From the IMG/VR virus record IMGVR_UViG_3300033388_005265, positions 32,001 through 96,000 of that record: a stretch of 64,000 nt of DNA. One strand, 5' to 3'. This DNA is from a virus. This document shows, one piece after another, positions 2,143 to 61,439 of this stretch. Both the position numbers and the translations under genes were made by a program. The stretch's first letter is position 1, and every line of letters begins with the position of its first letter. The notes beneath the pieces are model-generated. The model was not told where the DNA came from and did not search any database. It saw only the letters and a list, made by a program, of their open reading frames with translations.

Positions 2143-3249
2143 TTAGCCCTTCTTCTGTAAAGCTTGTTTAATCTTAGTTGCATCTGATGATGCAGTACCA
2201 TCGTCATCAAAGAAAGGTAGTATTGATGCCTCTATACTTCTATTGAAGCTAAATCCATCAGCTATCATATCTCCAGCCTCGATAGTCATTCTTGTAGACA
2301 CTGGTGAATATACTTCACCTGCCTTCCACATACCTCTGCATGTTTCTGCAAAGTCTGCTACCATTTCTGCATCTTCTGCACTGATACCAGTACGTTCAAT
2401 AAGCAGAGCCTTCTCTTGATCCTTATTAAGATAGTCTATTTCTATGATTGATACTCTATCTTTGAATGCACGGTCAAGTATATTTGTTCCTACATACTCA
2501 TCACCAATGTTTGCTGTTCCTATAAGCACACAAGACTTGCTCTTTTTAACAACTGGAAGCTCAGGATGCTCATCAAGCTCAAGATATCCCTGACCATCAA
2601 GAAGAGTCAACATCATGTTGTTAACTTCTGGATTGCTTCTGTTAATCTCATCCATTAGTATGACTGACTTGTCTCTTTGTATGTCTGTAACAAACCTTGA
2701 CTCTACAAAATTAGTTACATTACATTTTCCAGACTCATCCATAACAAGATTAACAGATCCGATAAGTTTGCTTCTTGGATCCATAGCATTACCTAAGTTA
2801 TAGGCGCTGTAGTTATACTCTAGGACTTCTGCTGCATGCTTAACAAGCTCACTTTTTCCTGATCCTGTAGGACCAACCAGAACTGTATGCTTTCCTTTGA
2901 ATATGTTTCTCAATAGTAGAGTCCATGTTTCGTCATCTACTATGAATCCATCTGGCTTTGGTGCTTCACGAAGAGTTTCATATAGGCTTTTCTTTGCCTT
3001 CTCTACTGCACTCTTTGTTATGCTACCACTTCCATACCAGAAGTTTCCTTTTGCCCTGTGCTTTAGTTTTGTACAGGAGAAGATATCTCCTTCTACCGGG
3101 GATAGACGATCTGAAATCTTTTTATTAATAACAACCTTACTTCCTGCTAGTACCTGTGTACCATCCACGTCAGTGGAGTTGCTCATCAATGAGAACTTTC
3201 TGTTTTTCTCAAATCTTATTTTTACTGCTCCTCTATCTGTATCACTCAT
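2143..3249 (-). CDS. MoxR-family AAA+ ATPase (CbbQ/NorQ/CobS-like)
   Basis: Walker A GPTGSGKS, Walker B ILMDEINR, IGTAN, LDRAFKDR, STR in lid; adjacent to vWA gene. Confidence 0.9.
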   Translation of the reverse strand: MSDTDRGAVKIRFEKNRKFSLMSNSTDVDGTQVLAGSKVVINKKISDRLSPVEGDIFSCTKLKHRAKGNFWYGSGSITKSAVEKAKKSLYETLREAPKPDGFIVDDETWTLLLRNIFKGKHTVLVGPTGSGKSELVKHAAEVLEYNYSAYNLGNAMDPRSKLIGSVNLVMDESGKCNVTNFVESRFVTDIQRDKSVILMDEINRSNPEVNNMMLTLLDGQGYLELDEHPELPVVKKSKSCVLIGTANIGDEYVGTNILDRAFKDRVSIIEIDYLNKDQEKALLIERTGISAEDAEMVADFAETCRGMWKAGEVYSPVSTRMTIEAGDMIADGFSFNRSIEASILPFFDDDGTASSDATKIKQALQKKG

Positions 3250-3272
3250 CTCTCACTCTCTCCTTTACTCTT

Positions 3273-3557
3273 TTATGTTTTTTTTAACTCTGGCTCCCCA
3301 GATATATAACCTGTTTCAAGCTTAGCAGCATGCTTAGCATATGATAGTGTCATACTAACTACTATTCCAACAAGACCAGCAGCTATTAGTGCAGTTGCAG
3401 TTCCACCTAGGAACATATATGTTACTCCAGCAGCTAATGCATCGGTCAGGATGTCACCTTTAAGTAGCATCTTTTTCATCCAGCCTGGCAGCTTTCTATA
3501 TAGTAAAACCATTCCTATAAAAGTTACTGTTGCTAGAGCGAATGCGTTAAATATCAT
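3273..3557 (-). CDS. small membrane protein
   Basis: 2-3 hydrophobic segments; strong SD (aaggag). Confidence 0.65.
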   Translation of the reverse strand: MIFNAFALATVTFIGMVLLYRKLPGWMKKMLLKGDILTDALAAGVTYMFLGGTATALIAAGLVGIVVSMTLSYAKHAAKLETGYISGEPELKKT

Positions 3558-3602
3558 TGTGTATCTCCTTTAAGATTTTTAATAAAGAGATAGAATATTA
3601 TT

Positions 3603-4184
3603 TTAATGAGGTGGCGGTGACATTTTTATTTCATACCCATTATTAATTGTAATATCGTTAATGAGTTTGTAGCTATACTTAAGCTGCTCTATGATCCCTT
3701 TCCAAAAGTCCTTAACGATCTGTGCATTATATATAACATCGTCATACTCTTGAACACCATTACTTGCTATTGTTTGTAGTGTTGTAGAAGCTGGAGCTTT
3801 ACCATCCTTACCTGTTCTTGCATCGGTAGTCTCTCTATACTTTTCTCTGTATGCCTTCTCTCTTTCAGATCCATAAGCTTTTTCAAGGGCGCCTGCTCTA
3901 CTATAATAGAACGATGCTTCTTGATGCTTCTCTGAGAGCTCAGCTAACAACTGCTTACACTTGGATGGATGCGCATCTTTTTCTATCTTAATATAGAAAT
4001 GCTCTCTCCATTCAGGCATAGTCTTACCATCTATTCTGTACTGAGTATAGAACTTTTCGTTAACCCTATTAAAGGTCTCTTTGCTATCTTTAACTTTCTC
4101 TATAAAGTCTTTGGCTTGGTCGTCTTTAAGATCTTTGATTTTAGACATAGCCGATCTAACTAATTTACTATCTGCTGCACCCAT
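3603..4184 (-). CDS. helical hypothetical protein, possibly UvsY-like recombination mediator
   Basis: Helical and charged; C-terminal pattern (IVKDFWKGIIEQLK) loosely recalls UvsY; weak call. Confidence 0.4.
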   Translation of the reverse strand: MGAADSKLVRSAMSKIKDLKDDQAKDFIEKVKDSKETFNRVNEKFYTQYRIDGKTMPEWREHFYIKIEKDAHPSKCKQLLAELSEKHQEASFYYSRAGALEKAYGSEREKAYREKYRETTDARTGKDGKAPASTTLQTIASNGVQEYDDVIYNAQIVKDFWKGIIEQLKYSYKLINDITINNGYEIKMSPPPH

Positions 4185-20412: not shown

Positions 20413-21444
20413 TTACGCCTTTATATTAATTAATGGTTTAACATGGTGCATTACATGCACAAGATCACTCTGAGCTTCCATAACCTTAAATGGATCTTTA
20501 TATGCAAGCTTTGATTCATCAAGAGTTCCTTTTTCTACTTTAGCTACAATATCGCTTCTTTTCATTCTATTTCTAAAGGCAGACATACTTAGTCTTTCTC
20601 TTATGACTGCACCGGTAATCTCGTCTCTTTTGCCTTCTTTGGCTTCTCTTCTGCCCATTAATCTTCCAGCTCCATGAGAGCTTGAGCATAGGCTATCAGG
20701 ATTACCTTTTCCTCTGACTATGAATGATCCATCTTCCATATTGCCTGGGATAACTCCCAACATGCCAACTTCAGCATGAGTAGCTCCTTTTCTATGAATC
20801 CATTCGCCATCTTTTAGATCTGCATGGTTATGATTACTATTTATAATTAATTTATCGTTTTTACGTATGAGCCAAGTTGCAAGCTTAACAGATAATGCTT
20901 TAGGTAATATCTTGCCAATAACACCTATAACTCTAGCAGCCATTTGTCTTCTGTTTTCAAGAGCAAATTCAAGACAGAAGTTAAGGTCAGTTATATAGTC
21001 CTTACCATCTTGAGAATTTACATCTAATGCATAGTGACCTTCTCTAGCCTTTCCTACACCAGATGCTGCTTTCATGTAGTGAGTAGCTGAAGAATGACCT
21101 ACATTTCTGCTTCCTGAATGGATAATAATCCATACATCGTCATTCTCGTCATAACCTATTTCTATAAAATGGTTCCCACCACCAAGCGTACACAGCTGTC
21201 TAAATCCACCTTTGTCATTAAACATTTCAACCATAAATGGAGTCGCAGCAGTATCCTTATATGCAGGCCATTTAGACTTCTTATCATTCTTATTGAATCC
21301 AGTAGGAATAGCTTCATATATAGCATCAAAGATTTCCTTCCTATAAGACAGGATATCTTCCTTTGCATCTTTTCTTCTTCTTATATCATCTTTGTGGTCA
21401 TCTGCTGATCCGAATGAACCTCCAAATCCTATATCCCATTCCAT
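20413..21444 (-). CDS. rtcB: RtcB RNA ligase, N-terminally truncated
   Basis: LGGGNHFIE, HSGSR, HRKGAT, SHGAGR present; N-terminal MPDxH and DIGCG Cys motifs absent. Confidence 0.85.
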   Translation of the reverse strand: MEWDIGFGGSFGSADDHKDDIRRRKDAKEDILSYRKEIFDAIYEAIPTGFNKNDKKSKWPAYKDTAATPFMVEMFNDKGGFRQLCTLGGGNHFIEIGYDENDDVWIIIHSGSRNVGHSSATHYMKAASGVGKAREGHYALDVNSQDGKDYITDLNFCLEFALENRRQMAARVIGVIGKILPKALSVKLATWLIRKNDKLIINSNHNHADLKDGEWIHRKGATHAEVGMLGVIPGNMEDGSFIVRGKGNPDSLCSSSHGAGRLMGRREAKEGKRDEITGAVIRERLSMSAFRNRMKRSDIVAKVEKGTLDESKLAYKDPFKVMEAQSDLVHVMHHVKPLINIKA

Positions 21445-23042: not shown

Positions 23043-23111
23043 ATACGTAGCTGGTTTGACCCAGCAACCGTACGCTCTAAAGGCGTATGCTCTACATTGA
23101 GCTATACTTTA
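23043..23111 (-). pseudogene. degenerate tRNA (loop CT-TTA-GA)
   Basis: D arm GCTC/GAGC and anticodon stem TACGC/GCGTA intact; 6-nt T loop, mispaired acceptor, no CCA. Confidence 0.6.
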
Positions 23112-31735: not shown

Positions 31736-32881
31736 CTAAAGATCAGGTTCAAATACTCCATCTTTATTTATTGCACCTGAACGGAAACTAACTCCAACCG
31801 GAAAACGAGGCAGCCCATCATCCGTAAGGCCGAAATATCGTACTGTAATAAATGATTTTGCTGCAACTATTCTATCTAGATTGTTCCATAGAGCAGCTCG
31901 GTACTCGTGATTCCCACGAGGAACACAGCCAAACTCTTTATTGTCCGTGGTCTTACATATAAATGTGACGTGTCCTTCTGCAGAGCCAGAACCCTCATAA
32001 CCCCCAACCACTTGGTACTCGGCATCATCAAAAGACTTAAGTTTTAAAAGTCTATTTGAACGCTTTTTATATTCATAACCTCCGGTCATTGATCTAATAA
32101 TGGCTCCTTCGTAACCCATTTTTACAATCTCATCATGACACTTGTAAACTTCTTCTTCGTTATATGCTACATATGATTCAACAGTTACTAGTCCTGGAAA
32201 ATCTTTTTTTGAATAGTATTGTCTATATCTATACTTAAAATCTTTTTCTGGATCTACGACATCGTATATCCAGAATTCAATCTTAAGACTGTCTTCTCGC
32301 TCTTTTTTAACAGCTGCTGTTATCTGTTGAAAAGTAAGATCATGTGAATACAACTCTCCATCAAGGGTCTCATCAATCTGCATTTTTTCTAATAGCGATG
32401 GCGTCAAATGACTTACTGTTGTTATAGGTTTGCCCTTTCTAGTTTTATAGGTGATTGTATCGCCATTGATCTTAGTGGCTAGACAACGAATTCCGTCAAG
32501 CTTCATTTGTACCATTACTGGATAATTCACTTTGTTTTTATGGTCCTTATAGTTCTTAGCAAGCATAGGGAGTCGAGGAATAGATAGACTAGTCTGATCC
32601 TCCGAGTACCCTTCTTGCTCTTTCTTCTTCAAATGTTTGCTTGTTATCTCGGCTATAGCCTGTTCATATGAAGAGGTCTGATTTTTCTTGCCAAGATTCT
32701 TTCCTTCTCTTATAATCTTGCCCTGTTCTTGCAGTTTACCGTCTTTAAGCCCATGGAGAGTCTTAAATCCAGCTGTGCCATCTATATCTTCATATGCCCA
32801 AGCGCGCCATACTTTTATTTTACCTTTTGAATCAAGCCCATATAATACTGGTAAGCTGTGTGTTGGTAATTCCATTATCAT
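31736..32881 (-). CDS. ATP-dependent DNA ligase
   Basis: Motif I KLDGIR, LDGELY, EGAIIR, LLKLK; WGR-like N-terminus. Confidence 0.93.
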   Translation of the reverse strand: MIMELPTHSLPVLYGLDSKGKIKVWRAWAYEDIDGTAGFKTLHGLKDGKLQEQGKIIREGKNLGKKNQTSSYEQAIAEITSKHLKKKEQEGYSEDQTSLSIPRLPMLAKNYKDHKNKVNYPVMVQMKLDGIRCLATKINGDTITYKTRKGKPITTVSHLTPSLLEKMQIDETLDGELYSHDLTFQQITAAVKKEREDSLKIEFWIYDVVDPEKDFKYRYRQYYSKKDFPGLVTVESYVAYNEEEVYKCHDEIVKMGYEGAIIRSMTGGYEYKKRSNRLLKLKSFDDAEYQVVGGYEGSGSAEGHVTFICKTTDNKEFGCVPRGNHEYRAALWNNLDRIVAAKSFITVRYFGLTDDGLPRFPVGVSFRSGAINKDGVFEPDL

Positions 32882-42509: not shown

Positions 42510-42585
42510 TGTAGGCGGGCAAGATTTGAACTTGCGTCCTCCAGCTAAACCGCTGGCGCTCTACCGGACTGAGCTACCAACCTAC
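42510..42585 (-). pseudogene. tRNA-like element with 6-nt anticodon loop
   Basis: D and T arms normal; CCAGC-GGTTTA-GCTGG; no full CCA. Confidence 0.65.
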
Positions 42586-42602: not shown

Positions 42603-42673
42603 AAATACGCAAGAGTCGAACTTGCCATCTCCCGGCTTGTGCCAGGTGCCCTGCCCGCTTAGGCCACTATCTA
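42603..42673 (-). pseudogene. tRNA-like element with 6-nt anticodon loop
   Basis: CCTGG-CACAAG-CCGGG; T arm GCAAG-TTCGACT-CTTGC; no CCA. Confidence 0.6.
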
Positions 42674-43167
42674 CATCTATGTAAATTCTGTTTTTTCTTC
42701 TTTATGTTTCTGCCTGTGAATGTGTCCAATTGACTATCACAATGCGGACATACCATTCTTAGATTCTCTATCCTATTGTCATTATTTGTGCCATTAATAT
42801 GATCTAATCTTAGTACTAATGGTTTTCCTTGCCACTCTGGTCTTATGCCACATATTTGGCATTTATTTTTTAACAATCCTTTTTCAAATAGTCTTTTTTT
42901 TAAATTAGTATTATTGTTATATGTACTATTTTCGACTAATATCTTTTCTAATGGAATTTTTTTAGCCCAATCGTGTTTTCTATCTTTTAAATAGCCTTGT
43001 CCTGTGAAATGAGATACATCTAAATTAAGTCTTTTAATAGCGTTGTTTAAAGTATTATAATTTCCTCCAGCTGGAATTAATCCTAATTTCTTTATTGCTG
43101 CCGCCTTTGAAAAACATGCCTTAACTGCTTTTGATACATCGTCATCTGTATATGATTTTTCTCTCAT
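42667..43167 (-). CDS. HNH homing endonuclease
   Basis: CQICG, LRLDHINGTNNDNRIENLRMVCPHCDSQ. Confidence 0.9.
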   Translation of the reverse strand: MREKSYTDDDVSKAVKACFSKAAAIKKLGLIPAGGNYNTLNNAIKRLNLDVSHFTGQGYLKDRKHDWAKKIPLEKILVENSTYNNNTNLKKRLFEKGLLKNKCQICGIRPEWQGKPLVLRLDHINGTNNDNRIENLRMVCPHCDSQLDTFTGRNIKKKKQNLHRCR

Positions 43168-43445: not shown

Positions 43446-43982
43446 TTACCATCCATCACTATTCCTATTTGACCAATTAGTTCTTTTTCCGTCATCCTTT
43501 ATCGCATTCTTTATCGGACTTGACATCCCTGATACTTTTAACTTTTCTTCTGGAGGTTGAAAACTTGGTTCTACTCCATTACTCCAAGGAGACTCTGTCC
43601 AAACGTATCCTTCTGGTGTTGCCTTTATTCTTATTTTTCCTTCAATGGCATCTCTCTGTCCTTCGAAATATGCCTCTTCCATTGCTTTTCCAATGGGAGT
43701 ATCTGATAATCTAGCTTTTTTTACAGCCTTGCCACTTTCAACTCTATCTTTAATATCCCTGTACTCTTTTAAAGAGTTTGTTCCACGAGTCTTTAAAGAA
43801 GCTAACCATGCTTTCTTTGTTAATGTAGTAACATTATTTTCAACAGCATAATTATAATATGCTCTTTCTCTATAACTAGCAAACTGTGGAATAGCTATAG
43901 CTGCAAGCATACCTACAATAACCACAACAATTAACAATTCTATAAGGGTAAAGCCACATGGATCTTCTTTACTATACATCAT
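43446..43982 (-). CDS. type IV pilin-like protein (prepilin N-terminal methylation site)
   Basis: G|FTLIELLIVVVIVGMLAAIAIPQFASYRERAY with E5; SD aaggag. Confidence 0.9.
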   Translation of the reverse strand: MMYSKEDPCGFTLIELLIVVVIVGMLAAIAIPQFASYRERAYYNYAVENNVTTLTKKAWLASLKTRGTNSLKEYRDIKDRVESGKAVKKARLSDTPIGKAMEEAYFEGQRDAIEGKIRIKATPEGYVWTESPWSNGVEPSFQPPEEKLKVSGMSSPIKNAIKDDGKRTNWSNRNSDGW

Positions 43983-44772: not shown

Positions 44773-44850
44773 TGTAGGCATGGTAGGATTCGAACCTACG
44801 GCCCTTGGGTTTATGAGCCCAAGTTCTACCTCTGATATACACTGCCTACA
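44773..44850 (-). pseudogene. tRNA-Met/Ile(CAT)-like element with 8-nt anticodon loop
   Basis: TTGGG-CTCATAAA-CCCAA; good T arm; bulged acceptor, weak D stem, no CCA. Confidence 0.65.
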
Positions 44851-45704: not shown

Positions 45705-45782
45705 TGGTCTGGATGGCAAGATTTGAACTTGCGACATCTCGCGTCCAAGGCGAGAACTCTGACCAAACTGAGCTACATCCCG
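45705..45782 (-). tRNA. trnP: tRNA-Pro(TGG)
   Basis: CT-TGG-AC; CCA. Confidence 0.9.
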
Positions 45783-46377: not shown

Positions 46378-46731
46378 TTATTTCCAATCTATTCTCTTAT
46401 TACCAGAATTATCTGATGCTGCATCCTTTTTACTGCCAAGTAATATATAAGTTCCACTAAAGAAAACTTTTTTCTTATCTTTAGTTCTTCCTTCCCATTC
46501 TGTTGGCGTTCCTGCATGACCGCAGATTGTACCATACATCAATATGGTATATCCAGGAATTGTCAATGTCCATGGTTTATCACTAGCATCAGATCCTGGT
46601 ACACAATCTTCTTCTGCCGCCTTTGCAGCAGTGCTTACAAACAATGTCAGGATCATTAGAACCATAAACATTACAAAACCTTTCTTAGCATTATCACTCA
46701 TTTGTATGTCCCCATTATAAATTCTTTCCAA
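46378..46731 (-). CDS. secreted protein
   Basis: Signal ending AKA|A; two Cys; true start probably MSDNAK. Confidence 0.6.
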   Translation of the reverse strand: MERIYNGDIQMSDNAKKGFVMFMVLMILTLFVSTAAKAAEEDCVPGSDASDKPWTLTIPGYTILMYGTICGHAGTPTEWEGRTKDKKKVFFSGTYILLGSKKDAASDNSGNKRIDWK

Positions 46732-47675
46732 AATTCAAAGTTAGGCTCTTCTGAAAAGCCACTATTTTCTGATAGCACTTCTATTTGATCCATTTTCTCT
46801 TCTATTAGCGGCGCCACTTCAGTCGTATAGTCTAGTTCACCTAGTTTTACTTGTCTTAAAAAGTCTGCCGATTTTAATGGAAACACTATGGTTCCAGTAG
46901 TAAATAGCTCTTCAAGCTGAAATGCAGCTCTTAATGCATGACTTAAGGCTTTCCAGTCTATATTCTCGTTGTTCTTAGCTGCCATAGCTCTAGCGCCATA
47001 TTTTTCATACACTAATTGAAGTGCATCTCTAGTGTATTTTACCTTAGCTGTTTCCTGGAACTTCCTATTACAGACCTCATACATTCTGTATCTATCTGGC
47101 TTAACACTATCATCTGTAGCTGGATGCTGAGCTATATGCTCTCCTAAAGGAAGGCAATCCCATATATCAGCAAGCTTTTCATCATCAGGACGAGTGTTCA
47201 AATATTCAATTGCCCTAGTTACTGCATCCAGTCTGGAACCTTTTATTCCATATTTAGCAGCCTGCTTTCTTGCATAGTCAACGAATGCACTTAGATTCTT
47301 ATGATAAAATTGTTCTTTGTTTATAGTAATATAGGACCAATGTAAGCTAGACTCTATTATCATTTCACAAGGAGCATGTATCATATCTATTTGTGCTGTT
47401 TGTCCTTCACATGCAAGCTTTATAAACTGATGTAAAGAGAACAATTCAACATCTATGTCATCCTTAGTATTTTTCCCTTTTTCATCACCGCTACTATGAT
47501 TTATAGTTGGCTGTGCTTTTTGCAATATTAAGTCTTCTTTAGATGGAAGAAATACTCCTTTATAATCTACGTCACTATGCTCAGTATCAGTACCATATAA
47601 ATGGCTACCAAATTTCATAAGAACTACTAGTTCTCGTCCATCAAGCAATTCACGTACAACTTCCATGTCAGTCAT
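46698..47675 (-). CDS. DNA polymerase-beta superfamily nucleotidyltransferase (RlaP-like)
   Basis: FGSHLYGT....SDVDYKGVF; WKAL.HA.R; LR.VK.G. Confidence 0.85.
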   Translation of the reverse strand: MTDMEVVRELLDGRELVVLMKFGSHLYGTDTEHSDVDYKGVFLPSKEDLILQKAQPTINHSSGDEKGKNTKDDIDVELFSLHQFIKLACEGQTAQIDMIHAPCEMIIESSLHWSYITINKEQFYHKNLSAFVDYARKQAAKYGIKGSRLDAVTRAIEYLNTRPDDEKLADIWDCLPLGEHIAQHPATDDSVKPDRYRMYEVCNRKFQETAKVKYTRDALQLVYEKYGARAMAAKNNENIDWKALSHALRAAFQLEELFTTGTIVFPLKSADFLRQVKLGELDYTTEVAPLIEEKMDQIEVLSENSGFSEEPNFEFWKEFIMGTYK

Positions 47676-47923
47676 CTTTTAATTCCTTTCAGCATTGAAC
47701 TGTTAAAGATCCCGGCGGGCTTCTTTTCCTCTATGACTTCTTCTTCTACTATTACTTCCTCTATCTTCTTATTAAGAAATCTTTCTGGAGGATTGCTAAG
47801 CTTTATCTTAGTCTTACTATTAACAATTGCAAAAGAGTTTATTTCCAATATATGTCTAAATGCTGCCTCTGCTCTTTCAGCATCAGCTGCGGTATCATAT
47901 TCAATTGAATAAGACGGACTCAC
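47672..47923 (-). CDS. hypothetical protein
   Basis: C-terminal IFNSSMLKGIKR. Confidence 0.55.
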   Translation of the reverse strand: MSPSYSIEYDTAADAERAEAAFRHILEINSFAIVNSKTKIKLSNPPERFLNKKIEEVIVEEEVIEEKKPAGIFNSSMLKGIKR

Positions 47924-47934
47924 CTTATCTATAT

Positions 47935-48270
47935 CTAGTAATGATCTATATCTAGTAATGTCGTCAATATTATAGATGTTTTAGAAGGAGCATTATCTAT
48001 ATTGTTATAGAGGGTATTTCCTCTTCCATAATAATATGTAGATGGAGAGCCATAATTACTACCTCTTTTAGATAGAACTTCAATCGTATACTGAACATCT
48101 CCTATTGTTCCAGCAGCATAAGGAGTATGATGATCATAAAATCTATCCTTAAGATCTTCAGCTAATATCTTGGTTGCTACTTTTAACTTTTTACCACTAA
48201 CTGTAAGCTTTACAGCTCCAAAATACTCTTCTTTTGTGAAATATAAAGTGTTAGTATCTTTATCTAGCAT
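47935..48270 (-). CDS. hypothetical protein
   Basis: SD ggaggg. Confidence 0.55.
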   Translation of the reverse strand: MLDKDTNTLYFTKEEYFGAVKLTVSGKKLKVATKILAEDLKDRFYDHHTPYAAGTIGDVQYTIEVLSKRGSNYGSPSTYYYGRGNTLYNNIDNAPSKTSIILTTLLDIDHY

Positions 48271-48271
48271 T

Positions 48272-48862
48272 CTATCCCTCCTCTATTATGGTGCCAGCAC
48301 CTATAACATGAGATATATTTCCTACGCTAGACTCTGACTCTTCTTGTTCAGTGTTATCGACAAGCGAAGCTAAAGACTTTTTATTAAATATCTTTAGTTT
48401 CTTTGGCTTTTTAATTCTTCGCCTCATTCTTGTCATTTTAAGTTTTTCTTCTTTATCTGGATCAGTGGTAAGTCTTTCTCCTTTGCCTAGGACTTGACCT
48501 CCAAGCTCCTCTATCATCATTTTAAACTTTTCATATGACTTTAAAGCAGCATTTCCTCCACCATATACCATGCATCTGCTAGACTTGCCAACTCTATCGT
48601 CCATATTAGGAAATGTCAAGCAATTACTTCCAATACTAGGTCCCCAATTACTGGTCTTTATCATAAATACTTCATTATGTCTTGGAGGTATTCTACAGGT
48701 TATGAGAAAACCTTTTCCCATTAATCTTTTCGGTATTTTAGTGGCTGTTAAGCATAATGATCTTCTTCCGTAAGCTCCAGTCATATCACTAACATACATT
48801 CGCACTACTAAATCTTTTCCTTCATCCATAACCCATTTGGTTACGGTTTTTCTCTTAGCCAT
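48272..48862 (-). CDS. hypothetical protein
   Basis: 196 aa; first gene after the ncRNA region. Confidence 0.6.
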   Translation of the reverse strand: MAKRKTVTKWVMDEGKDLVVRMYVSDMTGAYGRRSLCLTATKIPKRLMGKGFLITCRIPPRHNEVFMIKTSNWGPSIGSNCLTFPNMDDRVGKSSRCMVYGGGNAALKSYEKFKMMIEELGGQVLGKGERLTTDPDKEEKLKMTRMRRRIKKPKKLKIFNKKSLASLVDNTEQEESESSVGNISHVIGAGTIIEEG

Positions 48863-48869
48863 TCTCTCA

Positions 48870-49890
48870 TTTCTCCTCTCGTCTTACTACATCATCCTCT
48901 CAAAGATGTGCCCAAGTCAGGCGTTCTTGGGCTCCTATAGAATTACCACGGCTAGACCGTCATACAACGGGTTTTCGCTTCGTACCTACATGGATGCTGG
49001 TTCTTTATTTATTATAAATTCTTTTATGGTATTATTACTGTATCAGCTATATGTTAAGGGACAGACAAATGGACTAGACATCTCTTGCTGCTTCGACCCA
49101 ATCCCACTAGAGCTCTGACTGTTTAGGTCTTTCCCTAATGTTTTGGTCCACAGCAATTAACTGAGAAGCTCCAACATCTCAGGTTGCCTCTAATCGTTAA
49201 TACTCTAAGCATAAGCTATTATGGAGCCGATATAATGGAAACGTACACCGTCATTAAGGCTTTCACCGTTGAAGGTTCGTCCATCCGTCCCGAAACATTT
49301 TTCTTTCCAAGTGTGAGTTATACCATTTCACCGCTTTAATCAACTCTGATTAAATCGGGATTTTCAAAGAAAATCACAAGGTGAAACTCCGGTAATAACT
49401 AACAGTTCTAAGTCTACCCGAATATTTATCTCTCTTTGACACTTCTAATAGTACACTTTAGTGCCAATAAAGATTCTTAAAAAGTAATTTATCAAAGATA
49501 TTACTAAAAGAACATATGTCAAGATAAGATAAACCGGGGGTCTGACTTTTCTTACAATGCCGATACAGCATTGATTGCCCATAGGCCGCAGTTCTTACCG
49601 AGGCCTATAGGACTTCTATTAAGTTAATCAATTATTATACTTCTACTGTCTTAGTTTGCCTACCGTGTCTTGCCGCCGGCGTTCACAAAACCTTATAGGA
49701 CTTTGTATGTGTTGCTCTGATCATCATAGTATGAGGCATGTTTCAGCCTAGACTTTACCTACTCCTACGCTACCTCGCAGGGAGTATTATTTTTTTATAA
49801 GTAGGCACTAGGTCTAAATCTACATCGGAACCTCCATTTAGGCATAATTAAGATAATTTAGGTACTTTAATATTAATTTTTGTTACTTTT
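48870..49890 (-). ncRNA. candidate large structured ncRNA(s)
   Basis: About 1 kb with no credible ORF on the coding strand; dense perfect hairpins; upstream sigma70 promoter. Confidence 0.55.
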
Positions 49891-49895
49891 ACTTA

Positions 49896-49924
49896 ATAAT
49901 AACATAACTGCTTTTAATAATCAA
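49896..49924 (-). promoter_or_regulatory. sigma70-type promoter
   Basis: TTGATT-17 nt-TATTAT with TG extended -10. Confidence 0.65.
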
Positions 49925-49999
49925 TACTTACATTACATAACACCTTATGGCATTCTAATGATTTAGGCGTCTTTTATTATGGAGATTTTGCCTGTATCA

Positions 50000-50482
50000 C
50001 TATGGAGATTTTATATTCTTTATGACTGTTCTTCCAAAGAGCTTTCTTTTCTTTGGCGCGACATCTTTATTAAACATGGTAGTCTTAGCCCCTGGCTTAG
50101 GATATGTCATTACTGCTGCAACATTTGATCTGTCTATGAATACATATGACCCATCAGCCATGTTTATAATAAATCCATCTGAAGACTCAGTTACACTATA
50201 CTCATTATATTCGTGTTCTTCTCCTAATGATAATGAACAGTGTTGTAACATTTTAATACTACTATCACTAGGCATATCTTCTAGTGCAATTAAGCATTGA
50301 GACCATGATCCTTGATATAAGGCATCATATGTTACTGAGATACCTGCATCCATACATATTTCATTACTGCAGTCTTGATTACACAGGTCCTTAATGGTTA
50401 TCTGAACTGAATTTCCTCTTTTAATCTCTGCATTAATAAGATCTCTATTAGTCATCTTAGCTATGTAATCCACTAAGTTCAC
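50000..50482 (-). CDS. hypothetical protein
   Basis: C-terminal LFGRTVIKNIKSP. Confidence 0.55.
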   Translation of the reverse strand: MNLVDYIAKMTNRDLINAEIKRGNSVQITIKDLCNQDCSNEICMDAGISVTYDALYQGSWSQCLIALEDMPSDSSIKMLQHCSLSLGEEHEYNEYSVTESSDGFIINMADGSYVFIDRSNVAAVMTYPKPGAKTTMFNKDVAPKKRKLFGRTVIKNIKSP

Positions 50483-50777
50483 TAAGGAATTCCTTTTTCT
50501 TCATTCTTTTTGTCACAGGCTCAACAGCTGCTACTTTTTCTATCTTTCTTATAGCGCAGATCTTACTATTTATATTGGCGCCTACTTCACTAAGAGCATT
50601 TGTAACACGCCCATCTTCAACATGCTTAAAGACACCATCATATGTCATAAGCATATCGCCTTCATGAACTAAACCGTCACCTTCTTCTGCGAAAACAATT
50701 CTCCAATCATCATGAATAATAGTTACTTTCCCTGAATAGTCAACTGATCTACCGTCATGTGTCGCATACTTTGACAT
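50457..50777 (-). CDS. hypothetical protein
   Basis: SD aggaga; C-terminal KEFLSELSGL. Confidence 0.55.
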   Translation of the reverse strand: MSKYATHDGRSVDYSGKVTIIHDDWRIVFAEEGDGLVHEGDMLMTYDGVFKHVEDGRVTNALSEVGANINSKICAIRKIEKVAAVEPVTKRMKKKEFLSELSGLHS

Positions 50778-51156
50778 CTTTCTTTGCTCTCCTCATTTTA
50801 TTAATCATATCAGTGGAACCTGTACTCATATCAACTCTGAATACAACAGCTGCATCTGAATAGTCACGCATATCTCCGTTCCTATCAATACCTGCTTTGG
50901 CATTATACTTCTTGCCATACTTGTTAGTCTTTATAATTGCACCTGGAGCATCTAAGTTATCCCAGTCTGCTGCAAATCTTTTCCAGCTATAACCTTTTTC
51001 TAAAGCATATCTGTGCCCCATGTCATCAGCACCACGAGCCTTACCATCAACGATCTGTATATCGTCTTTGATATCCTTTAAAAACTTGTCCAATTCTGCC
51101 GATAAAAGTTTGTAATTCCTGAACCCTCTGCTCCCCGCCACTATTACTTTGTACAT
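50755..51156 (-). CDS. SLOG family protein (DUF2493/YspA-like)
   Basis: Start moved to MYKVIVAGSR; GKARGAD; RN..M...D....F....GS..MI. Confidence 0.85.
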   Translation of the reverse strand: MYKVIVAGSRGFRNYKLLSAELDKFLKDIKDDIQIVDGKARGADDMGHRYALEKGYSWKRFAADWDNLDAPGAIIKTNKYGKKYNAKAGIDRNGDMRDYSDAAVVFRVDMSTGSTDMINKMRRAKKDVKVCDT

Positions 51157-51373
51157 GATCTTCTCCCTCTTTAATAGTTTTGCAATTAGAGAAAGAATAT
51201 TTAGTTTTAAGGGATTGCACGAACTCATCTACATAGCCATCTATTACACTGATTACTACGTATCTCTTTATTTTAGAAGACCCTTTAAGTTTCTGATTTA
51301 AAAAAGCTTTTAGCTCTTCTTTTATTTTATTTTCATCTATATACATGGTTATCTCCTTTATAGTGGAGAAAGA

Positions 51374-56662: not shown

Positions 56663-56825
56663 CTATTTCTTTGTTCAATTGTTTAAGTCTTTCTGTAACC
56701 TTGGCTAACTCTTCAGTAGCCTCTGCTTTAGCAGCCTTTACGTCAAACCGGTGCTTTACAAGCACACGTATAGTTCTCCATGAAGCCCATAGGTTATCGT
56801 ATATCTTCTCAAGTTTCTTTTTCAT
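56643..56825 (-). CDS. hypothetical protein
   Basis: Packed ORF. Confidence 0.45.
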   Translation of the reverse strand: MKKKLEKIYDNLWASWRTIRVLVKHRFDVKAAKAEATEELAKVTERLKQLNKEIDEKTRA

Positions 56826-57012
56826 CTCTTTCTCCGTTCCACTCCCAGTGCTTACATGCAGGCATATACATTCCTAGACCACATACATCAGTGTCCTTCT
56901 CATAGAATCTGCAGTTATTACATGTCTTTGCCGGCAAGTTTTTATTACAGTAGTAATATATGGTTAAAAATATAACAAGTATAACTATTCCTGTTACTAT
57001 GTATCCAATCAT
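56809..57012 (-). CDS. membrane-anchored Cys-rich protein
   Basis: TM segment followed by CNNC..C..C. Confidence 0.55.
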   Translation of the reverse strand: MIGYIVTGIVILVIFLTIYYYCNKNLPAKTCNNCRFYEKDTDVCGLGMYMPACKHWEWNGERDEKET

Positions 57013-57187
57013 TATGCTTCTCCTTTAATACGTTGTGGAGCTACTCCATCCTTTAGGATTACCCAAACGGTAACACAAGGAATTAAGTTAATACAGAACC
57101 TCTTAGTATTATCTGAATAATGAACACCTATCCAGAAGCTTCTAAGTCGGAATAATATTCCTATTGATTTTAGTCTAAACATTGTAT

Positions 57188-60688: not shown

Positions 60689-61010
60689 GATATTACTCCC
60701 GGTTAATTGATTAATTACTTACGTATATACAGAAGGCTATTCCCAGGAAGAATCCTGAGAGCAGATATCCAGCGCCATTACCTAGACCAGTGAATACACC
60801 TGCTAACACCAGGCATCCTATACCGATCTTATTGTCGGTACTGATAGCTTTCATATCCTGTTACCAGCTTTAGTCTTAAGCTCAGTAGTTATAGCACTAC
60901 CACCTTTTTCAATATACCTGGCAGTATTACTTACGTTAATGATGCCATAGTATGCTAGCAGTATTGCTACAATAAACCCAGCCGTGAATCCTATTCCAAG
61001 TCTTATCATC

Positions 61011-61439
61011 CTATTCGCCTCCGTCTCTTATTTCCATAAGCATTTTGCCTAGGTGATTTTGACCAGTTCCTGACTTACATCTAGAGCATACACAGTTGCC
61101 CCAGTAATTATCATGCCAGTTATTGGTCTCTACTATTTCGCCTTTACTGGCGTCAAGCCTTGTTCTCCACGTAGTTCCACGAGCAAACTTTTGATTCAAT
61201 GCTTTACGCATTACTATCAGCTTGCCAAGACTCCAGTCAGGCCTATATTCAAAGTCCTTTACCTTTCTCTTGGCATCATAAGGATTCATCTTAGCGATAG
61301 CTTCTCTGTCTGGCATCCTGGCGCATTTAGCAGCCTGGTACATGTTTTCAACAGTCTTATGCGATATACCATCGTCATCAATGATAGGCTTATCACATTC
61401 CAGCATGTTACTGAACCAGTTCTTAATCCATTTAGGCAT
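61011..61439 (-). CDS. NADAR (YbiA-like) protein
   Basis: WFSN, TVENMYQAAK, M..AL..KF, E.N.WHD.YWG, G.NHLGK.LMEIR. Confidence 0.9.
   Translation of the reverse strand: MPKWIKNWFSNMLECDKPIIDDDGISHKTVENMYQAAKCARMPDREAIAKMNPYDAKRKVKDFEYRPDWSLGKLIVMRKALNQKFARGTTWRTRLDASKGEIVETNNWHDNYWGNCVCSRCKSGTGQNHLGKMLMEIRDGGE

Follow-up and report, generated by a model that had tools for sequence, protein, structure and literature searches.

A candidate large structured RNA of an uncatalogued family near the tRNA island of a marine-sediment phage

We analysed a stretch of viral DNA of 64,000 nucleotides (hereafter the window; positions 32,001 to 96,000 of the IMG/VR virus record IMGVR_UViG_3300033388_005265, a 119-kb linear record with a CheckV completeness of 61%) and found that a gap devoid of open reading frames (ORFs), located at 48863-49999 (1,137 nt) between a 160-aa ORF and a 196-aa ORF, almost certainly encodes a real structured non-coding RNA (ncRNA). 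The RNA lies on the minus strand, as do all the credible genes around the gap and all 22 tRNA genes. It spans at least 48907-49791 (885 nt) and perhaps about 48895-49889, which gives a size of ~0.9-1.0 kb. The explanation that we favour, with a probability of roughly 0.55, is a stand-alone, multi-domain ncRNA of this size from an uncatalogued family, which would pair with itself through a palindromic loop and for which a role in trans in the phage is our guess.

The gap is the largest one in the window without a tRNA. Each of its six reading frames contains 20-38 stop codons. When the relatives described below were compared, substitutions were distributed 68/72/71 over the three codon positions, without any 3-base periodicity, against 27/28/57 in a flanking gene, and 67-219 indel columns were counted in the gap. 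The stops in all frames, the lack of codon periodicity and the many indels argue together that the gap is neither a gene nor a recently decayed gene. A preliminary description of this DNA had likewise seen no credible ORF here, over a stretch narrower than the one we found to be gene-free; the decayed ORF that it had kept as an alternative is argued against by these same three observations.

The RNA family comprises nine sequences in all, which are environmental and for the most part closely related. A search with the 196-aa protein recovered five relatives with 59-85% identity, whose contigs (L005-L009) keep the gap upstream of the gene, and contig L015 was found by a search with the upstream protein. 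An exhaustive profile search led to P0132, a protein 28% identical to the 196-aa one, and its contig, L030, begins inside a divergent copy of the RNA, which was matched by a model of the 5' half of the core (R1) with 34 bits and an E-value of ~1e-8. L030 is the divergent ninth member.

The homologue search and covariation check suggested in the preliminary description revealed compensatory changes across eight relatives from metagenomes, more than 40 base pairs in four domains being kept by changes on both sides. The alignments alternate between invariant runs and variable, length-changing stretches. The sub-alignments gave the following counts, all for the minus strand:
49550-49791, minus strand, 5' domain: pairing in 96.7% of cells; 11 pairs with a change on each side, where shuffling gave 5.6 ± 1.6 (2 of 500 shuffles reached 11) and slid controls 0-4
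49289-49575, minus strand, middle domain: a change on each side in 14 of the 43 pairs, counted without shuffle or slid controls
49034-49299, minus strand, core: pairing in 93.8%; 12 pairs with a change on each side, where shuffling gave 5.3 ± 1.5 (0 of 500) and slid controls 2-6
Junction and core with L030 included, minus strand: 96.6% paired; 20 pairs changed on both sides against 7.3 ± 1.9 after shuffling (0 of 500) and 2-6 in slid controls

The minimum free energy of the minus strand at 48891-49791 was -250 kcal/mol (z -3.64, with none of 20 shuffles as good) and that of the plus strand -213 kcal/mol (z -1.99). G·U was the commonest pair at several positions; since such pairs would read as A·C mismatches on the plus strand, the RNA strand is the minus one. 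A structured RNA of about 600 nt upstream of the tRNA array had been proposed before: the RNA itself is upheld by the covariation in the four sub-alignments, and its size has to be raised to ~0.9-1.0 kb, with a 5' part that reaches at least to 49791.

From the covariation and the predicted folds we infer an RNA in which the 5' domain is followed by a long hairpin, a three-way junction, then a core that a long-range helix closes, and lastly the 3' domain. The parts, in the direction of transcription, are:
49896-49924, minus strand, candidate sigma-70-type promoter (TTGATT, 17 nt, TATTAT, with an upstream TG), identified by consensus match only
49792-49889, minus strand, possible 5' leader with two invariant hairpins, conserved in the window, L005, L006 and L015
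49550-49791, minus strand, 5' domain of nine helices, with a hairpin at 49760-49786, the palindrome stem-loop at 49666-49692, a long hairpin at 49578-49611 and hairpin A
49674-49681, minus strand, 8-nt palindrome CGCCGGCG, the last eight bases of an 11-nt loop on a covarying 8-bp stem
49555-49573, minus strand, hairpin A, CAAUGC-UGUAUCG-GCAUUG, with a covarying stem (CAACGC/GCGUUG in L007)
49387-49554, minus strand, long irregular hairpin of the middle domain, a variable part that took the same topology in independent folds of six homologues
49327-49385, minus strand, three-way junction with the stem UUCACC/GGUGAA (49380-49385 with 49327-49332) and hairpins at 49359-49375 and 49335-49354
49051-49298, minus strand, conserved core domain with a 20-bp long-range closing helix (49279-49298 with 49051-49074)
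48907-48995, minus strand, 3' domain, formed by an outer helix with an inner variable hairpin, then a terminal 7-bp hairpin with a 9-nt loop (48910-48932)
48863-48906, minus strand, spacer and Shine-Dalgarno region (GAGAGGAGAAAUGAGAGA) of the 196-aa gene, a conserved block before its ATG

A start at the candidate promoter would put the 5' end near 49889. The promoter block is nearly identical in L005, L006 and L015, and the sequence just upstream diverges in L006. Variation in the 5' leader is near zero, so that its pairing receives no covariation support and its membership in the RNA is only possible; in L008, homology ends at ~49799. Another promoter element had been suspected at about 49522, where a TTGACA was taken as a possible -35 box of the RNA. 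The consensus match exists (49522-49517, minus strand), but UUGACAU (49516-49522) pairs with GUGUCAA (49436-49442) in a helix that covaries (CG:4 UA:1, AU:4 GC:1), and L006, in which TTGACA is partly deleted, carries UUGAUAU/AUAUCAA. As this helix is preceded by 270 nt of covarying structure, the motif is more likely part of the structure than of a promoter.

The 7-nt loop of hairpin A is complementary to UGAUACA at 49039-49045, loop and partner being both invariant. RNAalifold and the single-sequence folds choose the long-range form of this pairing, which in these models is a candidate long-range pseudoknot or alternative closing helix. In the three-way junction, the stem and both hairpins compensate in L006, L007, L015 and L030, the stem reading UUCGCU/AGCGAA in L015 and AUUCAU/AUGAAU in L030. 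Two perfect hairpins listed in the preliminary description, TTTAATCA/TGATTAAA (49335-49354) and GATTTTC/GAAAATC (49358-49377), proved to be the arms of this junction, each with compensatory changes.

Within the core lie several junction strands that do not vary, a hairpin of variable length and a hairpin with a GAAA tetraloop (49258-49267). That tetraloop, on a covarying 3-bp stem, is one of two CGGTGAAA GNRA-like loops reported before; the other belongs to the 3' strand of the three-way-junction stem and does not form such a loop. A further reported hairpin, CTGAGA/TCTCAG (49161-49182), can be read in the window, yet none of L005, L006 and L007 conserves it, and its 3' arm takes part in a covarying long-range helix. 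In the 3' domain, two pairs of the outer helix changed on both sides, and the inner hairpin varies from sequence to sequence (CCGU/ACGG, ACCA/UGGU, GUUG/CAAC). The terminal hairpin, already seen as CCCAAG/CTTGGG (48911-48931), is conserved in six of six sequences with one change from A-U to G·U.

The palindrome of the 5' domain points to contacts between molecules. Its site is the only palindrome of at least 6 nt common to all the sequences, and no alternative partner of at least 6 nt for CGCCGGCG, present in all sequences, was found within the RNA. Mirrored changes restore the palindrome as CGUCGACG in L008 and UGCCGGCA in L015, with two changes each; in the helix that two copies would form, two of the four pairs changed on both sides and 100% were paired, the variants coming from two of five sequences. 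Adjacent bases cannot pair within one chain, and covariation of the palindrome therefore argues for pairing between two molecules. In OLE (L9.3) and GOLLD (L21a), covariation of a palindrome was read as self-pairing, and cryo-electron microscopy (cryo-EM) shows intermolecular pairs (Kretsch et al., bioRxiv 10.1101/2024.12.08.627333); our reading of CGCCGGCG follows a pattern like that accepted for these two loops. The loop is thus a candidate intermolecular (homodimer) kissing loop, and we give self-association of the RNA through it even odds.

The RNA very probably represents a new family, absent from Rfam 15 and from all the collections searched. With the 4,227 Rfam families at gathering thresholds, the window gave tRNA matches only; at E<=10, the gap gave two chance-level matches (E 3 and 5.6), far below the gathering scores, and the scans of all relatives likewise gave no family match. 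Among 50,697 phage records, BLASTN found no match to the gap. A locus search in IMG/VR with four flanking proteins returned three distant loci only, with the RNA in none of them, and scans for exact and degenerate motifs in viral, metagenome and genome collections returned either nothing or 16-17-mer matches at chance level. When the 119-kb genome was scanned with the family profile (nhmmer), no second copy was found.

Small shares of the stretch occur in public runs, which are metagenomes of marine sediments and cold seeps, and the DNA runs X1, X2 and X3 contain fragmentary relatives. No public run recorded as RNA contains the stretch. Run X12, of uncertain kind and labelled 'METATRANSCRIPTOMIC ChIP-Seq', contains one 151-nt contig at 49242-49390, with the flanking genes empty, and was not counted as evidence. 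A smaller, distant relative may exist in L014, a related contig of 189 kb whose RlaP is 55% identical. There, a model of the 3' domain (R2) scored 25 bits in a 528-nt gene-free gap (3109-3605), just before the canonical terminator (3575-3602) in which this gap ends, and the match has a 7-bp stem and a 9-nt loop as in the 3' hairpin of the window. Sequence alignment was not significant (z ~2), and models R1 and R3 gave at most 10 bits.

Several points weigh against a stand-alone, self-pairing RNA. The transcript and both of its ends are predicted from DNA only, and that the 5' domain, with the palindrome, shares one molecule with the core is an assumption. The nine sequences are few and mostly close to each other, so that the cell counts overstate the independent events. 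L030 shifted part of the core fold (GGCUCC/GGAGCU versus AUCG/CGAU and GCUC/GAGC), and the detailed fold model is provisional. With two variant sequences behind it, the palindrome argument is suggestive, not proof, and the palindrome could conceivably be a DNA-level feature, for example a protein-binding site. Finally, no U-tract or intrinsic terminator was predicted after the 3' hairpin, and with a Shine-Dalgarno sequence ~35 nt away the RNA could be a very long operon leader.

This last possibility is the strongest rival, although we consider it rather unlikely. The RNA would then be a giant cis-acting 5' untranslated region of the downstream operon (the 196-aa and 191-aa genes, RlaP and the tRNA island), controlling read-through or translation. 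It agrees with the lack of a predicted terminator between the 3' hairpin and the next gene, with the Shine-Dalgarno block, which begins ~35 nt past the last hairpin and is conserved among the relatives, and with the adjacency of RNA and 196-aa gene in six contigs (the window, L005, L006, L007, L008 and L009). The size of 0.9-1 kb, with about 30 helices in the window RNA, speaks against a leader: we know of no riboswitch or T-box leader near such a size, the window RNA being several times larger. In L030, moreover, a 138-aa gene stands between the RNA and the homologue of the 196-aa gene, P0132 being one gene away from the RNA, and the 3' domain is missing while the core is kept. The palindromic loop, for its part, points to RNA-RNA assembly.

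Less probable is a catalytic RNA, that is an ORF-less self-splicing intron, a self-processing RNA or another ribozyme. The long invariant junction strands, the GNRA tetraloop and the long-range helix that closes a conserved core are all found in large ribozymes. Against this, Rfam gave no match at E<=10 in the gap for group I or group II introns, RNase P, transfer-messenger RNA (tmRNA) or rRNA; a group II D1-D4 model stayed below 12 bits, elsewhere in the genome only, and ARAGORN found no tmRNA. The flanking ORFs are separate genes with their own stop or their own Shine-Dalgarno and start, not the halves of one gene, and no reverse transcriptase or homing endonuclease lies beside the RNA.

Slightly lower still we rank a highly divergent GOLLD or ROOL, beyond the reach of the Rfam models, which the common setting would suggest: a phage, the vicinity of a tRNA island, 0.6-1 kb, an ornate fold and a self-complementary loop. 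The preliminary description had offered membership of ROOL or GOLLD beside a new large ncRNA, and the second half of this proposal is the one that survives, since the covariance-type scan it had called for (ROOL, GOLLD, group I and II introns) gave no match. For GOLLD (RF02032, 150-bit criterion), not even a partial match at E<=10 was obtained in the 119-kb genome, the window or eight relatives. For ROOL (RF03087, 99.1-bit criterion), none was found at E<=10 in the whole genome, in a search made without a positive control, and the model was absent also from the full Rfam scans of the window and the relatives. The phage location near tRNA genes is that of GOLLD, and the RNA has the traits of a large 'ornate' phage ncRNA (>500 nt, non-coding, many covarying helices), a likeness of kind and not of homologous family.

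The comparison with the known large RNAs is nevertheless instructive. GOLLD is also phage-encoded, often near tRNA islands, at least 0.8 kb long, rich in covarying helices and of unknown function, and its symmetric kissing loop has a covarying palindrome (bioRxiv 10.1101/2024.12.08.627333), a trait that the candidate loop of the window RNA may share. GOLLD forms a 14-mer RNA-only nanocage. No model matched, the order of parts in the window is 5' domain with the palindrome, long hairpin, three-way junction, core and 3' domain, and the window RNA, unlike GOLLD, has no embedded tRNA. ROOL is a phage or prophage RNA of ~0.6 kb near tRNA islands, with pseudoknots, a variable linker and quaternary kissing loops (bioRxiv 10.1101/2024.12.08.627333); the window RNA is ~50% longer and comes from marine-sediment phages, ROOL from rumen or Firmicutes phages. 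OLE dimerises via the palindromic kissing loop L9.3, on the same kind of evidence, a palindrome switching to other palindromes (bioRxiv 10.1101/2024.12.08.627333). It differs as a bacterial membrane-associated ribonucleoprotein RNA of extremophilic Firmicutes, without sequence relation to the window RNA. The dimerisation initiation site of human immunodeficiency virus 1 is a hairpin loop with a GC-rich palindrome and purine flanks that forms a loop-loop homodimer. Its palindrome is of 6 nt, its loop of 9 nt, and it belongs to a viral genome; the analogy to the window RNA is mechanistic only. The RNA is best read as a new class of large ornate phage RNA, which resembles GOLLD and ROOL and is a member of neither.

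A DNA-level element, be it an origin of replication, a packaging site or a region bound by a regulatory protein, is barely credible, and so is a decayed gene whose hairpins arose by chance. In favour are an AT-rich stretch and, at 49967-50012, an imperfect 23-nt tandem repeat, both at the gap's 5' edge, and the palindrome could bind a protein. Against these readings, compensatory changes with frequent G·U on one strand only are the mark of an RNA, codon periodicity is lacking, each frame has 20-38 stops, and no iterons occur within 48907-49791.

If the RNA is a stand-alone one, its palindromic loop (CGCCGGCG, 49674-49681) would pair with the same loop of a second molecule, and the RNA would act as a homodimer or a larger RNA-only assembly, as GOLLD, ROOL and OLE do. 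That it founds a new giant phage RNA class assembling as a symmetric RNA-only multimer, at least a dimer via CGCCGGCG and possibly a cage, is a tentative extension that we hold to be less probable than its absence. During infection the RNA might act in trans together with the tRNA and RNA-repair module (22 tRNAs, RtcB and RlaP), as a scaffold, container or decoy for translation or tRNA-related components; a functional link to this module is a guess.

The genomic setting of the RNA is shared by several of its relatives. A tRNA island on the same strand starts 2.7-3.1 kb downstream of the RNA in the window, L005, L006, L007 and L030; in the window the nearest tRNA is tRNA-Pro (45705-45782, same strand), 3.1 kb downstream. 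Near the island lies a set of genes for RNA and DNA repair, comprising an RtcB-type RNA ligase, an ATP-dependent DNA ligase, an RlaP nucleotidyltransferase and a YAcAr/SLOG-family protein. Phages use such sets of tRNA and RNA-repair genes against tRNA-cleaving defences. The neighbouring genes are:
50000-50482, minus strand, upstream gene of a 160-aa protein of unknown family, whose stop codon marks the start of the gap
48272-48862, minus strand, downstream gene of a 196-aa basic protein of unknown family, with its ATG at 48862
20413-21444, 31736-32881, 46698-47675 and 50755-51228, RNA and DNA repair set

Pfam and PHROG scans of the 196-aa protein gave no match. Its AlphaFold2 model (pLDDT, the predicted local distance difference test, of 46) was too poor as a search query, and all its matches in the ESM Atlas had a template modelling (TM) score below 0.5. 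Further downstream (47672-48270, minus strand), ORFs of 111 aa and 83 aa correspond to a single 191-aa gene in L005, L006 and L007, which in the window is split by a 17-nt tandem duplication (CATTACTAGATATAGAT twice, ~47927-47960) that introduces a stop codon. A similar terminal peptide occurs in the proteins that flank the RNA, reading LFGRTVIKNIKSP in the upstream 160-aa one, IFNSSMLKGIKR in that of 83 aa or 191 aa and IFGRSLVKSK... near the end of P0132; its sites, at 50000-50090 and 47672-47710 in the window and ~1330-1371 in L030, are kept in the relatives. The tandem repeat at 49967-50012 (…TATGGAGATTTT twice) runs across the stop codon of the 160-aa gene. Two other gene-free gaps were seen in the window, at 56663-57187 (525 nt) and 60689-61112 (424 nt).

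Among the tRNA-like genes, those at 42510-42585, 44776-44846 and 23047-23107 are odd, one having an undetermined anticodon ('tt') according to ARAGORN and two being Rfam tRNA matches (31.4 bits, and 42.8 bits for a truncated one) that ARAGORN did not call. The island also holds (42667-43167 and 43446-43982) a weak HNH-endonuclease match, below the Pfam cut-off, and a protein with a prokaryotic N-terminal methylation (pilin-like) motif, found also in L005 and L030.

Only a small number of large RNAs without an assigned function have been described from bacteria or phages, and three of them, GOLLD, ROOL and OLE, were recently shown to be RNA-only multimers. Our basis is nine environmental sequences from uncultured marine-sediment phages. 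Another class, unrelated to those three and of ~1 kb, which shares the genomic setting and has a covarying self-complementary loop of its own, would suggest a general function linked to tRNA islands and would offer a new cryo-EM target. The RtcB, RlaP and 22 tRNAs of the same phage make a link to the tRNA-centred arms race between phage and host testable. If the multimer reading is true, RNA-only assemblies beside tRNA islands would be a recurrent, independently evolved strategy of phages and not the quirk of two families.
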